A DNA stretch of 32,000 bases from Promethearchaeia archaeon (lineage in GTDB: Archaea; Asgardarchaeota; Lokiarchaeia; Sigyniarchaeales; SOKP01). The stretch is taken from NCBI GenBank assembly GCA_046497275.1, contig JAWOFX010000130.1, positions 18,281 to 50,280 of the forward strand, read 5' to 3'. A program made the position numbers and the translations under genes. Below are positions 241-7,879 of the stretch, piece after piece (position 1 is the stretch's first letter; every line of letters starts with the position of its first letter). A model generated the notes under the pieces. The model worked only from the letters and a program-made list of their open reading frames with translations, was not told the origin of the DNA and ran no database searches.

Positions 241-534
241 CTAAAATAAGGAGCCAATTCCTGCCGGTTCTTCCTCTTCCTCTTCCTCTTTTTTAGCCTC
301 TTCTTCTTTTGCTTGAGGAGCACCACCACTTGTAGCAGGCATTGATGCTACAGGAGCAGCTGAAGCAGATTGTAATATTGTATCAATATCTGTCTCATTT
401 AAACCAGCCACAAGCTTTGTAATTTGCTGTTTATCTGGTTCTATATCAGCAGCTTTCAAAATCTTTTCAATACTTGCTTCGGTAATGTCTTTCGATGCTT
501 TATGAAGCAAAAGTGCGGCATAAATACTTTCCAT
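241..534 (-). CDS. rpl12: 50S ribosomal stalk protein P1 (archaeal L12/aP1)
   Basis: N-terminal 'MESIYAALLLHKASKDITEASIEKILKAA', Ala-rich hinge, acidic EEEEEEEE tract and C-terminal GIGSLF; last gene of the L11-L1-L10-L12 cluster; GAGGT SD-like motif upstream. Confidence 0.95.
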   Translation of the reverse strand: MESIYAALLLHKASKDITEASIEKILKAADIEPDKQQITKLVAGLNETDIDTILQSASAAPVASMPATSGGAPQAKEEEAKKEEEEEEEPAGIGSLF

Positions 535-579
535 TTTCTATTACCTCTAATTTTTTAATTTTTAATTTTTAATATATTA

Positions 580-1554
580 TTAGAATAAGCTTCCTATTCC
601 AGAAACTTCATCCTCCTTTTCCTGATCTTTCTTTTCTTCTTTCTTCTCTTCAGTTTTAGGTTTCCCACTTGGAGGTGATGCAATTCCTTCTCCAAAAATC
701 ATCGCATTCATAACATTTGCATGAGATTGTGCTTTTTTAAGATAATCCTCGATGAATGTTTCATCTATAAATGGCATCTCGAAAAGTAAAGCTATTGCTT
801 CGCGATGAGCTTTCTGCATCAAAGGTTCAAAGGTTTCTTTGTCGATTATCCCTAGTTCAAGGGCTATTGTCTGTGCTATTATATATGAAGATGCAACTTC
901 CTCTCTAAATTTCGCCAAATCCATATATATAACATCTTCAAGAATAAGATCCCCATCAGACCAGGCAGTATGAATCTTTAGAATTGATTCAATGGGTTCA
1001 ACTCCAAGCTTTTTCAATACAGATGCTTCTTTAGTTGAAACAATATCTCCTGCTTCATGGGTGACCGTATCTTCTCGGATATGTATTGTGTCATTTTTAA
1101 TCATGGTAGGTAGCTTTAAAGTCATATTCAATTCACTTATTACTTGACCAGTGGGCAATCCAGTATCTCCTGCAGGAACGACAATATCAACGGGAGTCCG
1201 TTGATCAGGTTTTGCGGCAACCATCCATTTATTTTCTAAGAAAATTCTTCTTAATTCAAAAGGATCTATATCAGTAAAAATAAGAGCGGATTGACCAGGT
1301 ATACTTTCTTTTAATTCATCTATATTTTCCTTATTACTCTCTTCTTGATATTTATCAAGCGCTCGCTGTTGCAAAGATTTTTTCGACATTCGAATTACCG
1401 CTTTACCTCTAAGTATTTTTCTCATCTCCTGAACTTGTTTATCGTTAATATTAGAAACATCAATTACAATAATATTATCGTATTTTTCCATTAAATCCTT
1501 AAGATATTTAATCTCATCCTTTTTCCATTGAGGGATTGTTTTTTCTGACATCAT
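580..1554 (-). CDS. rpl10: 50S ribosomal protein uL10 (acidic ribosomal protein P0)
   Basis: 'IPQWKKDEIK', 'QEMRKILRGKAVIRMSKKSL', 'VPAGDTGLPTG' and a charged tail ending GIGSLF; canonical gene order. Start may be the second Met (1551). Confidence 0.95.
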   Translation of the reverse strand: MMSEKTIPQWKKDEIKYLKDLMEKYDNIIVIDVSNINDKQVQEMRKILRGKAVIRMSKKSLQQRALDKYQEESNKENIDELKESIPGQSALIFTDIDPFELRRIFLENKWMVAAKPDQRTPVDIVVPAGDTGLPTGQVISELNMTLKLPTMIKNDTIHIREDTVTHEAGDIVSTKEASVLKKLGVEPIESILKIHTAWSDGDLILEDVIYMDLAKFREEVASSYIIAQTIALELGIIDKETFEPLMQKAHREAIALLFEMPFIDETFIEDYLKKAQSHANVMNAMIFGEGIASPPSGKPKTEEKKEEKKDQEKEDEVSGIGSLF

Positions 1555-1560
1555 TTTTCA

Positions 1561-2289
1561 TTATTCACCCACACTATCCAGGAATTCCTCGTCTACTTTA
1601 ACAGGTTTTCCCATTGTTGTTTTTATATACATATTTCGGATATTATTATATTTATGAGGCATTTGATCGACAATATAATCAACCACAGTTTCAATGTTCT
1701 CAAAAACCTTTTCATTTTCCATAGATTTTTTACCTACCTTAACTTGGATCATTGGTGTTTTTTTTACTTGAATTCTAATAATTCGTTTATATCTATTGAT
1801 AGCATTTTCAAGCTCTTCTACTGTAGAAACGATTCCATACCCTGCTGGAAACGGTTTCGGCATTTTACCTCGTGGGCCAAGAAACCTCGCTAAGTATCGA
1901 GCAACTGTAGGCATTAATTTATCTTCTACAATAAAAAACTTATAGTTCTTTACAAATTTTTTTTTTTCTTTCTTCTCTTGAGCGTTTAATTTTTCTAATC
2001 CATCAGAATCCAGTGTATCTACATCCATCTTTTTCGCTTGTAATAAAAGCTCTCCAGATGCTATTACGCATAGTTTTGATTCCCTTTCCTTTGCTACGGG
2101 ATGTGGCAATATTAATTCTTTATCAATTCGTTGTTTCGGATCATTAAGATCAATATCTTTAATATTAATGATTAAATCGACAGATTCATCAAAATTACGT
2201 TTTTTAGGTTTATGTCCTTCTTTTTCTCTTACAGAAAAATCTATAGCTGTTGTTAACGATCGTTTTAATAATCTATCATCAACTTTCAT
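1561..2289 (-). CDS. rpl1: 50S ribosomal protein uL1
   Basis: 'KRNFDESVDLIINIKDIDL', 'LGPRGKMPKP', 'YIKTTMGKPVKV'; 4-nt ATGA overlap with the rpl11 stop codon. Confidence 0.96.
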   Translation of the reverse strand: MKVDDRLLKRSLTTAIDFSVREKEGHKPKKRNFDESVDLIINIKDIDLNDPKQRIDKELILPHPVAKERESKLCVIASGELLLQAKKMDVDTLDSDGLEKLNAQEKKEKKKFVKNYKFFIVEDKLMPTVARYLARFLGPRGKMPKPFPAGYGIVSTVEELENAINRYKRIIRIQVKKTPMIQVKVGKKSMENEKVFENIETVVDYIVDQMPHKYNNIRNMYIKTTMGKPVKVDEEFLDSVGE

Positions 2290-2789
2290 AATAATTCCTC
2301 CGTAATTTGATCATCATATTCTCCATTATCAATTCTTTTTTGAATAGTTCGAGGATCTTCTCCTTCAATGGTCGCTCCTATTGATAAGGCTGTCCCAAGA
2401 ACTGTTCTCATGGCAGCTTTATACGTTTTTTCTAAAAAAGTATCTTTTTTTGCTTCAACAACAGACTTAATTTGATCTAAGGTTAAATCCCCTATTTTTT
2501 CTTCTGCACAATTAGAACTTCCTTGCACCGCTCCTAATTCTTTTAGAAGCAAAGATGCTGTTGAAGGAGTCTCAATAAATATCTCAAATTTCTTAGTTTC
2601 TGGATCACACACTATTCGTACAGGTACAGATAATCCTTTGAACATTTGCGTTTCTTCATTTATTTTATCTATGACATCTTTTATGTTTATACCAGTTGGT
2701 CCAACTGCAGGACCGATAGGCGGTCCACCAGATGCACTACCTCCTGTAACAAGTGCTTTAACTACTATTTTTTCCGACTGTTCACTCAT
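2286..2789 (-). CDS. rpl11: 50S ribosomal protein uL11
   Basis: 'LVTGGSASGGPPIGPAVGPTGINI', 'TPSTASLLLKELG', 'GTALSIGATIEG'; GAGGA SD-like motif upstream. Confidence 0.96.
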   Translation of the reverse strand: MSEQSEKIVVKALVTGGSASGGPPIGPAVGPTGINIKDVIDKINEETQMFKGLSVPVRIVCDPETKKFEIFIETPSTASLLLKELGAVQGSSNCAEEKIGDLTLDQIKSVVEAKKDTFLEKTYKAAMRTVLGTALSIGATIEGEDPRTIQKRIDNGEYDDQITEELL

Positions 2790-2820
2790 TTGTAATCCTC
2801 TTCAATAATTATTATATTTT

Positions 2821-2928
2821 CAAAACAAATAGTAAAAAGGCTAAATTGTAGGTTCGTTTATTTCAATACATTTTATGATGCTATATTGAAACCGTTAAAC
2901 ACGTACTAAGCCTTTTAGAATTGTTTTG
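2821..2928 (-). promoter_or_regulatory. Long imperfect hairpin upstream of rpl11, candidate structured 5' leader
   Basis: Nested complementary arms: 2821-2828/2921-2928 (8 bp), 2835-2842/2909-2916 (8 bp), 2848-2850/2904-2906, 2856-2860/2896-2900 and 2861-2870/2882-2891 (10 bp including a G-U pair that forms only in the minus-strand transcript). Confidence 0.5.
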
Positions 2929-3172
2929 ACTTAGTAAATTTAAAAATACTTGAAAATTAAAAAGTTTTATTAAAAAAATAGAAAAAAAAGATATTATGTG
3001 AATTGGTATTTTTAGACTCTATTCATTTAATAGCCAATTTACTATATAATCTGGAAAGAAAAATCCTAAGTAATAAGTTATAGAACTTATGATTAAAATC
3101 AAGCGAACAAGTATAATCATAAAAATTGTTGTTTAGGAAGAGATAATTATTTAAATTTTGAAATTTGTAATG

Positions 3173-3361
3173 TTAGTGAGTCCAGCGACAACACAATCTT
3201 CTGCCATAATCTAAATTATTTTTCAAATATTCTTCAGAAAGGATTTCATGTACTGTTTGGTAGTCTAAATTAAGCTTTTTGGCAATATCTTCTATATCCA
3301 TGCCTGGAATGGTTATTAGCTCCAAAATAGTCTTTTTTGTCTCTTCATTTACTTCAATCAT
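3173..3361 (-). CDS. Small hypothetical protein with HTH-like segment
   Basis: 62 aa; 'PGMDIEDIAKKLNLDYQTVHEIL' fits a helix-turn-helix pattern; co-oriented downstream of the FAH-family gene. Confidence 0.7.
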   Translation of the reverse strand: MIEVNEETKKTILELITIPGMDIEDIAKKLNLDYQTVHEILSEEYLKNNLDYGRRLCCRWTH

Positions 3362-3430
3362 TTTGATTCACTAAATTATAGAGAAATACAAATTAAAAAT
3401 ATCTTTTTTATATTTTAAAATTTTTGCCCT

Positions 3431-5998: not shown

Positions 5999-7567
5999 TT
6001 AAGAAAGAGACTCTTTTTTAGATGTTGGATATTGAGGAATATGTGTTTCTATTTTGTATTGTTGCCCTGTTTTTTGTTCTATATGCTTTGCTTTATTAGT
6101 TATCGCCTTTAACTCATCCGATATTTTTGATGTAGATATTCCTTGGCTTCGCAGCATTTCAAATCCGTTCTTTATAACTTCACTAACAAATCTTGGTATG
6201 CTTGAAAGCATCCAATTAAATTTCCCGAACGGATTACAATATCTTTTCCCTACCATTAAAAGCCATTCTTTTCCAAAATAGTAGGACGAATATGCTTCGA
6301 CTACTAATTCATATAGTTCTTTACTTGATAATTCATCAGTATCCATCATTGATTGGAATAGATCATAATTTCTGTAATTTTTTGATGCAATCTTTCCTTG
6401 AGCTTCCATCTCATCATAAAATTCAGTTCCAGGAAAAGCAGTTATTGGGGTAAATTGAACACATGTTAAATTAAGTGATTTGGTAAATTGAATGGTTTGC
6501 CTTACCATTTTTTTAGTTTCTCCAGGAAAACCTATTATAACTCCTCCAAAAATCGAAATACCATAGTCTTGAAGCTTTTCCACCACTTCTCTTGTCATAA
6601 TTGGTGTTGTCCCCCGTTTATTCATCGCATTTAAGCTTTGTTGATGTACTGACTCAATACCAAGAAAAACTTGCCTCATCCCCGCTTTATGCATCAAATC
6701 GATTAACCAAGGATTTCTATGTAGCGTATCAACTCTCGATTGACAACTGAAATACATCTTGTTATTTACTCGGGACTTAATAATCGCATCAAGTATGCGT
6801 TTTGTTCTTTTTATATTTATAGTGAAATTATCTTCGCAGAAAAAAATGAAATCATTTTCTTTCCAATTGACATCATAGATTTCTTTCATTATTCGTTTCA
6901 CGCTTTTTGACCTATAGGATAAATGAGAATATGGATCGCTCCACATCTTATGAATACAACAAAATTTACATGAATGAGGACATCCTCTTGAACTTTCAAG
7001 GGAAGCAACTCTCACTCCCAAATAAACATATTTAGAATCATCAATTAAATCTCGTCTTGGTAAAGGAAAGTTATCTAGATTCTTTTCTAACTTACGATCC
7101 TTGTTATGAATCACTTTTCCCTTCTCATCTTTATAGGAAAGTCCATCAATATCTTTTAGCGTTATTTTGTGTTTATTGTCATTGATAAAATCGATTAGTT
7201 CTCGAAAAGTGTGTTCCCCTTCTCCTCTAATGACATAATCCACAGATGGATGTTTTATTACATGATCAGAAGCTAAGGTTGGGTGATATCCTCCAAGAAT
7301 TGTTGGACAGTCTTGTTTCTTGGCGATGTCCGCAATCTCGAATGCACTGTAAATTTGTGGCGTCATGCTTGTTATCGCAACAACATCATGCCTATTTAAT
7401 TCGCTAGCTAATTTATTTTCATCAAAATCTTGAACCTTATAATCAATAAGTTTTGCATCGTGCTCGGGAACCATTGCGGCTAAGGTCATTAGGTTTAGGG
7501 GTTGCCCTTTAATAATAAAGTCAAGACCTGCTCTAATTCTTGTTGGATTGATATATAAAATTTTCAA
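5999..7567 (-). CDS. Cobalamin-binding domain radical SAM protein (class B-like)
   Basis: N-terminal B12-binding region ('PLNLMTLAA', 'VAITSMT', 'ILGGYHPT', 'VIRGEGE'), CxxxCxxC 'SRGCPHSCKFC', 'VFLGIES', 'IIGFPGET'. TTG start. Confidence 0.92.
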   Translation of the reverse strand: MKILYINPTRIRAGLDFIIKGQPLNLMTLAAMVPEHDAKLIDYKVQDFDENKLASELNRHDVVAITSMTPQIYSAFEIADIAKKQDCPTILGGYHPTLASDHVIKHPSVDYVIRGEGEHTFRELIDFINDNKHKITLKDIDGLSYKDEKGKVIHNKDRKLEKNLDNFPLPRRDLIDDSKYVYLGVRVASLESSRGCPHSCKFCCIHKMWSDPYSHLSYRSKSVKRIMKEIYDVNWKENDFIFFCEDNFTINIKRTKRILDAIIKSRVNNKMYFSCQSRVDTLHRNPWLIDLMHKAGMRQVFLGIESVHQQSLNAMNKRGTTPIMTREVVEKLQDYGISIFGGVIIGFPGETKKMVRQTIQFTKSLNLTCVQFTPITAFPGTEFYDEMEAQGKIASKNYRNYDLFQSMMDTDELSSKELYELVVEAYSSYYFGKEWLLMVGKRYCNPFGKFNWMLSSIPRFVSEVIKNGFEMLRSQGISTSKISDELKAITNKAKHIEQKTGQQYKIETHIPQYPTSKKESLS

Positions 7568-7879
7568 TATTAATTTTCTCTTTTAAAGTAATTTAATTGT
7601 ATTAGTTTATATAAAATTTTATGGCATTCTAATATTAATTATTTTCGTTGAAATTGAAGAAAATATTTCAATTAAAAGAAAGAATATTATTATAATCATA
7701 AGACCTCCTTAACTATTAAAAATTTGGATTCTCAAATATATTAATTAAATATATCTTTTTCAATCATGAGGAATAATAATTTTTAAAGAATCTTGATTTT
7801 TCGTTCTAATTAGAAATGACTTTTATTTTGTAAGAAATTATTTAAATTTAATTTTGAGAAAAAATTAAAAGGAATTATT

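Follow-up and report, generated by a model that had tools for sequence, protein, structure and literature searches.

The window, by which we mean the whole 32,000-nt stretch of Promethearchaeia archaeon DNA analysed here, carries upstream of its rpl11-rpl1-rpl10-rpl12 operon a leader RNA that acts in cis and belongs to a conserved, uncatalogued family found in one order of the Loki-type Asgard archaea (Promethearchaeota). An earlier note on the window had proposed a structured leader for this ribosomal protein operon, and both its existence and its conservation were borne out by covariance models and by covariation among relatives. The leader is present in more than 130 species genomes and provides Rfam, as well as genome annotation, with a new RNA family. 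The most plausible role of this RNA is an autoregulatory one.

A nested hairpin precedes the ribosomal protein operon

The operon and its genes are located in the window as follows.

241–2789, minus strand: rpl11-rpl1-rpl10-rpl12 operon (Pfam and sequence)
2789–2286, minus strand: rpl11 (Pfam)
2289–1561, minus strand: rpl1 (Pfam)
1554–580, minus strand: rpl10/P0 (Pfam)
534–241, minus strand: rpl12/P1 (Pfam)

The rpl11 stop codon overlaps the rpl1 start codon (ATGA at 2289–2286), and rpl1 and rpl10 are separated by 6 nt. The upstream neighbour is an unrelated gene encoding an FAA-hydrolase, and the operon therefore has a 5′ region of its own. The stretch upstream of the operon (2790–3430) is non-coding, unusually long and very AT-rich; a 62-aa ORF (3361–3173, minus strand) with no Pfam match is the sole ORF between the leader promoter described below and the FAA-hydrolase gene.

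On the rpl11 sense strand, positions 2928–2821 form a nested hairpin of approximately 35 bp with a folding energy of −26.5 kcal/mol, the 3′ end of which lies 31 nt from the rpl11 ATG. Dinucleotide shuffles of the hairpin had a mean energy of −12.6 ± 3.1 kcal/mol (z = −4.57), and the real fold was better than all 200 of them (0/200 as good). The window's own 3.85-Mb genome contains one full-length copy. Fold energy, shuffles and single copy together confirm the nested hairpin of about 108 nt that the earlier note had placed upstream of rpl11. A MITE or other dispersed repeat was considered and ruled out by the one genomic copy and by the one covariance-model match per genome. The antisense (plus) strand folds at −24.7 kcal/mol (z = −3.8), nearly equal to the sense strand, and the strand is therefore not fixed by energy alone. 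Relatives repeatedly have U-G pairs, which on the opposite strand would become C-A; the RNA is therefore the rpl11 sense strand, and the strand call originally made from one G-U pair is upheld.

Five nested helices had been described in this hairpin. Its two outer helices and its apical helix have evolutionary support and are conserved, whereas the pairing of the two middle helices (GUA.G.GUUU with GAAC.C.UAC) is a local form of one that only about 11–13 of 27 relatives have. The third helix (UUAGGACG with GUYCUAA) was dropped as a conserved element on the same count, only some 11–13 of the 27 relatives having it.

The leader was found in one order

The rpl11 loci collected from 38 related genomes share an upstream pattern that opens with a BRE/TATA element. 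An invariant YA-CUAAG lies about 20 nt further on and is succeeded by CUUAG-(G/U)A-CG, a short hairpin, CGG and another hairpin. Two covariance models were used, R1 for the leader core and R2, which is broader, and each had one match at the place of the leader in the window's genome. R1 matched 119 of 131 whole genomes of the window's family, nearly always once per genome and with E values of 1e-8 to 1e-14. R2 matched 117 of 126 genomes of the same family and 11 of 13 genomes of its sister family, where each match was upstream of rpl11 by its coordinates. The structural conservation in relatives that a genuine leader RNA would predict is thus present in both families. Of 30 loci that were checked, 28 carry the match on the rpl11 strand at a distance of 145–300 nt upstream of the gene, and the remaining two end at a contig edge. 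By eye, the motif was also recognized in two further families of the order, a third (L032) and a GC-rich fourth (four genomes), and the leader was always upstream of rpl11 in the families carrying it. Some of the leader-bearing genomes of the sister family are single contigs and may be those of cultured strains. A few related genomes had two R1 matches (G065, G094, G099 and G101), as at G101:C2:2552–2630 and 7538–7615 or, about 1 kb apart, on G094:C196; these may be duplicated leaders or may reflect mixed-strain bins.

Apart from one partial 23-bit match (E = 0.017), R2 had no significant match in the seven genomes from the other orders of the class, and the motif was absent by eye from five rpl11 loci of these orders. 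Among approximately 118 genomes of other families of the phylum, no R2 match was significant, and the single weak one (G246) lay away from rpl11. A cmscan of the window against Rfam 15 returned nothing at gathering thresholds; with E values up to 10, the 2200–3100 region gave weak noise from snoRNA and sRNA families (E = 0.99–9), none of it spanning the leader structure. A full-text literature search did not find a paper on an Asgard leader. The earlier note had known of no described Asgard leader of this kind, and this agrees with its absence from Rfam and from the literature searched. Among the archaeal leader candidates published by Eckert and Weinberg (2020), L11, L1 and L10 are not represented (PMC7247131). 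Those candidates and the ribosomal protein leaders of Rfam have in common with the Asgard leader that they are lineage-restricted structured RNAs located before ribosomal protein operons, but the Asgard leader has no cmscan match to the Rfam leaders.

The hairpin lies in a predicted 146-nt 5′ UTR

The following elements were placed between the promoter and the rpl11 start codon.

2956–2969, minus strand: predicted archaeal promoter, BRE at about 2969–2964 and TATA box at about 2963–2956 (alignment consensus)
2935, minus strand: predicted transcription start, the A of U/A-CUAAG (YA and TATA distance)
2790–2935, minus strand: whole 5′ UTR of the rpl11 operon mRNA, 146 nt (predicted start to the ATG at 2789)
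2796–2800, minus strand: Shine-Dalgarno (SD) sequence GAGGA, 6 nt before the ATG at 2789–2787 (read from the sequence)

In an ungapped alignment of 44 distinct upstream regions, the BRE/TATA consensus AtAAAaTTTTTTAATTTT was found at a fixed distance, centred at approximately −26 from the A of YACUAA, and the spacing to the start is identical in the GC-rich family. The dinucleotide YA occupies the predicted start in 51 of 51 leaders. A TATA box about 26 nt ahead of the start is the canonical geometry of archaeal promoters. From this distance and the conserved YA, transcription is predicted to start at position 2935 of the window; a start at this position gives a 146-nt 5′ UTR that contains the entire hairpin. 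AT-rich, TATA-like words also occur nearer the rpl11 ATG. SD-like words are found at the same position in relatives, and this conserved SD argues for a leadered mRNA despite the nearer TATA-like words. YACUAA gave no sign of enrichment as a general promoter-proximal motif, 34 TATA-plus-motif sites being found among its 2169 occurrences.

The most conserved part of the leader is a junction at its 5′ end

Two largely exclusive folds are open to the leader, and their elements in the window are listed here.

2928–2934, minus strand: 5′ strand of P1, CUAAGUC, the very 5′ end of the RNA (RNAalifold, pair counts)
2906–2912, minus strand: 3′ strand of P1, GGCUUAG, of which GGCU is the top of the second helix of the hairpin (RNAalifold, pair counts)
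2904–2905, minus strand: two-base bulge, UA in the window (leader comparison)
2892–2903, minus strand: P2 mini-hairpin (CGU-loop-ACG), then an invariant G (pair counts)
2861–2891, minus strand: P3 hairpin (UUUCAAUAU / AUAUUGAAA), the apical helix of the nested hairpin, common to both folds (pairing, covariation)
2821–2928, minus strand: rod (fold A), the nested hairpin itself, with Pa (2928–2921/2828–2821), Pb (2916–2909/2842–2835), weak middle pairing and P3 (MFE, z-score)

The RNAalifold consensus computed from 21 leaders of the family consisted of P1, P2 and P3 (fold B) and did not return the outer helices of the hairpin. Fold B starts at 2934, outside the limits originally given to the hairpin, and it competes with the base of the latter. 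Over 51 leaders, pairs 1–3 of P1 are invariant, pair 4 is AU in 47 and CG in 3, pair 5 is GC in 38, UA in 8 and CG in 4, and pairs 6–7 are a mixture of CG, UA and UG. The bulge is GA in 44 of 51 relatives versus UA in the window, its A being invariant. The third pair of P2, counted over 26 distinct sequences, is UA in 17, CG in 7 and AU in 1, with 100% of cells paired. In P3, the sequence of which is unusually conserved within the window's family, 94.7% of cells are paired and double changes occur in 4 of 9 pairs. Taken together, P1, P2 and P3 have 96% of their cells paired, as compared with 29–47% when the partners were slid, and their covariation score exceeded those of all 500 shuffles. Across families, P1 and P2 are 99.2% paired, with double changes, and three unpaired bases at the junction, namely the 5′ A, the A of the bulge and the G that follows P2, do not vary in any of four families. 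The most conserved part of the leader is thus P1, the (G/U)A bulge and P2, which is distinct from the rod.

Invariant unpaired bases at a junction typically mark the site of a ligand or a protein. Among the partners that might be considered are a small molecule or ion sensed in the manner of a riboswitch and a factor encoded outside the operon, such as L7Ae on a kink-turn-like G-A/A-G junction. The two-state architecture would suit such a ligand, and tandem sheared G-A pairs could, we infer, be formed by the GA of the bulge with the 5′ A and the G that follows P2. This explanation is nevertheless very unlikely, because the leader occurs in one copy per genome and before one operon only, the bulge of the window is UA rather than GA, and no likeness to any Rfam riboswitch or k-turn family was found.

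A long-range rod competes with the conserved junction

The A-rich loop of P1 is complementary, genome by genome, to a U-rich arm located 30–60 nt before the ATG, and the sequences of both drift. Since MAFFT misaligns the 3′ arms, co-evolution of the rod was assessed by an alignment-free comparison of cognate and permuted duplexes. Cognate arms paired at −13.5 kcal/mol on average, versus −9.1 kcal/mol for permuted ones (z = −11, 0/20000); the two outer helices of the rod are kept by compensatory change.

An operator acting at the DNA level, recognized by a dimeric transcription factor at the transcription start, or a chance palindrome in AT-rich DNA, would account for the half-sites ACTAAG and CTTAGT that flank the transcript start and for a plus strand that folds nearly as well as the minus strand. 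Either is barely credible in view of the data: the mismatches tolerated in P1 are almost all sense-strand U-G (17 at each of the two outer pairs versus 4–5 others), the spacing of the half-sites varies from 13 to about 40 nt, shuffled sequences never reach the observed fold energy, and the long-range arms co-evolve.

Both the P1 loop and the GGCU of the 3′ strand of P1 take part in the rod, and the rod and P1 therefore exclude each other. In terms of constrained ensemble energies, fold B lies 1.0 kcal/mol above fold A in the window, and over 44 leaders the difference averages +3.0 kcal/mol (range, −6 to +12). The P1 loop of the leaders from the GC-rich family closes on itself, and the MFE structure of their 5′ core is fold B; the P1-bulge-P2 core therefore looks ancestral and the rod looks like a later elaboration. 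SD accessibility falls from 0.55 in fold A to 0.44 in fold B. Masking of the SD by the arm that is released in fold B was not distinguished from the control, accessibility being 0.437 versus 0.469 with shuffled arms (p = 0.06).

This last result, the near-isoenergetic folds and the pairing of the very 5′ end of the RNA in P1, which is a classic stabiliser, would be in keeping with an element that works independently of any protein, the 5′ helix or the rod setting mRNA half-life, co-transcriptional folding or the basal rate of translation. We consider this explanation, including an effect on half-life by shielding of the mRNA from a 5′–3′ exonuclease, unlikely; the invariant unpaired bases of the junction and the restriction of the leader to one ribosomal protein operon, in single copy per genome, argue against it.

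The junction resembles uL1-binding sites

The operators of uL1 have been described as stems that contain one unpaired A in addition to a G-A pair (PMC3616713). The junctions compared with such sites read as follows.

GG-GA-GC...GC-A(A)C: 23S H76-H77 junction of relatives
GGG-GA-GCCUC...GAGGC-G: E. coli rplK operator
G-GA-GCAxx...xxUGC-AC: leaders of the GC-rich family
G-(G/U)A-CG...CG-G: leaders of the window's family

The P1-bulge-P2 junction resembles the docking site of uL1 (23S H76-GA-H77, and likewise the E. coli rplK operator) in a circularly permuted form. The motif they have in common is short, at about 9 nt. The likeness is closest in the GC-rich sister family, where the G-GA-GC...GC-A(A)C of the 23S L1 stalk (H76-H77-H78) of related Promethearchaeota recurs almost exactly, and it is weaker in the window, with its UA bulge and C-G as the first P2 pair. 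The junction of the GC-rich leaders also agrees with the E. coli rplK operator and with the stem described for uL1 operators. Compared with the 23S stalk, the leaders of the window's family have no equivalent of H78 and a different strand connectivity. In this family, the place of the 3′ strand of the canonical loop is taken by the 5′ A together with the G that follows P2, so that the site would be circularly permuted relative to the canonical one. The 23S gene is absent from the window's own MAG, so that the rRNA comparison rests on relatives, and it is also absent from the four genomes of the GC-rich family.

Individual features of uL1 operators are shared to different extents. As to position before rplK/rplA with coupling of the two genes, the leader has a constant place in 28 of 30 loci and rpl11 and rpl1 overlap by ATGA. 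With respect to a bulge providing a G-A pair and an unpaired A, the window has UA, the U of which could pair with the 5′ A. Of the G-C pairs expected on both sides of the bulge, the lower is invariant but the upper is C-G in the window and its family, being G-C only in the GC-rich family and in one genus. The usual single continuous stem-loop is replaced by a lower helix that uses the 5′ end of the RNA.

A different rRNA mimic had been suggested earlier, on the basis of GGCUUAG...CAUCAU and the H43 region of E. coli 23S rRNA. The relatives do not agree with this: GGCU is replaced by GACU, AGCU, AACU or UACU, the CAUCAU apical loop is not conserved, and H43 of related Loki 23S rRNA reads GGAUAUAGAAGCAGUC or GGCUCAGAAACAGCC instead of the E. 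coli letters that had served as reference. A search of three related 23S genes with R2 gave nothing significant, the best match (E = 0.22) falling in an unrelated region. An L10(L12)4-type leader mimicking the GTPase-associated centre was accordingly rejected, as the motif letters vary, H43 of the relatives differs and Rfam RF00557 is not matched. More generally, the P0(P1) stalk complex or uL11, acting on a mimic of that centre, would be an effector with a precedent, since a leader mediates the regulation of the bacterial L10(L12)4 operon by its own product (PMC3616713); the four genes share one transcript in the window, and the well-conserved P3 is left without an assigned partner. Given the variable GGCU and apical loop, the divergent H43, the R2 search of the 23S genes and the lack of an Rfam L10_leader match even at E = 10, we regard these effectors as quite improbable. 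The fold that holds the invariant nucleotides of the leader resembles the uL1 site, not the uL10/uL11 site.

A putative feedback operator for uL1

The protein encoded by rpl1 is an orthodox uL1, which matches M. jannaschii L1 (entries 1cjs, 1i2a and 1u63) with an E value of 1e-37. Across the order that carries the leader, rpl11 and rpl1 either overlap or are at most about 15 nt apart at most loci, the outliers (L037 and L038) reaching about 20–40 nt at most, while the spacer is about 40–140 nt in the sister orders without the leader. This long spacer suggests that rpl1 may form a separate unit in the leaderless orders, as in Methanococcus. At L109–L112, which belong to other orders of the class, the spacer is AT-rich and promoter-like.

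The two-state leader may well be a feedback operator for a ribosomal protein of the operon, most likely uL1, a reading to which we give an even chance. In fold A, the A-rich segment after the 5′ end would pair with the U-rich arm about 30–60 nt before the start codon; in fold B, the first nucleotides of the transcript would pair with CUUAG to form P1, followed by the (G/U)A bulge and P2, and this fold would be the docking site for a ribosomal protein from the operon, most likely uL1. With free uL1 in excess over free 23S rRNA, binding of the protein to the P1-bulge-P2 junction would hold the leader in fold B, expression of rpl11 would be lowered, and the repression would pass to rpl1 and the downstream genes via translational coupling. 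The output could lie in translation, in mRNA stability or in premature termination at the U-rich arm. A more specific version, which we put forward tentatively as somewhat more doubtful than probable, is an Asgard-specific permuted uL1 operator in which the 5′ end of the mRNA is stacked on a mini-hairpin and which is coupled to the competing rod as a two-state switch; with the same reserve, the switch in that version could be kinetic or thermodynamic and could act on the whole L11-L1-P0-P1 unit.

To our knowledge, feedback by ribosomal proteins that recognize rRNA mimics has been mapped well in bacteria but is barely known in archaea, and we know of no case in Asgard archaea. Such a permuted uL1 operator would, if true, define for the first time a ribosomal autoregulatory leader in the archaea most closely related to eukaryotes. 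As a single-copy, covariation-backed element of about 150 nt, the leader is a clean case for testing.

In E. coli, the leader of the L11 operon (rplK-rplA) likewise lies upstream of rplK, with rplA translationally coupled, and likewise has two stacked helices with a GA bulge between them next to G-C pairs; it mimics 23S H76-H77. Its site forms a single uninterrupted hairpin some 25 nt from the SD, whereas the candidate site of the Asgard leader is permuted and about 100 nt from the SD. The Asgard leader differs further in its competing long rod and, in the window, in a UA bulge and an upper helix that starts with C-G, and the two leaders have no sequence homology or Rfam family in common. With a lower helix made from the 5′ end of the RNA, its topology is unlike that of every described uL1 operator. 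An archaeal precedent is provided by Methanococcus vannielii and M. jannaschii (MvaL1 operon), in which uL1 exerts feedback on its own operon via an rRNA mimic (PMC3616713, PMC2175363). The uL1 of M. jannaschii (MjaL1) is similar to the uL1 of the window, but the methanogen site is at rpl1 of a separate L1-L10-L12 unit, whereas in the window rpl11 comes first and is preceded by the long 5′ leader. Considering these likenesses and differences, the leader is best filed as a new, lineage-specific ribosomal leader RNA, a variant and putative member of the uL1-type feedback operators.

Short inserts in rpl11 of related genomes

In many genomes of the window's family, rpl11 contains short inserts that bring in stop codons or a frameshift (L052:1293–1320, minus strand; L053; L055; L028 of G021; L022, L026, L045, L048–L050, L061 and L071). 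They fall into two classes, one of 28–29 nt located between GPTGI and NIKD or between GPAV and GPTG, and one of about 36 nt located between TGGS and ASGGPP. Each insert contains a hairpin of 7–8 bp flanked by short complementary words on the exon side, and from these features the inserts look like BHB-type mini-introns in the mRNA of a ribosomal protein. A text search of the literature found work on Asgard tRNA introns and nothing on introns in protein genes. The rpl11 gene of the window itself is intact.
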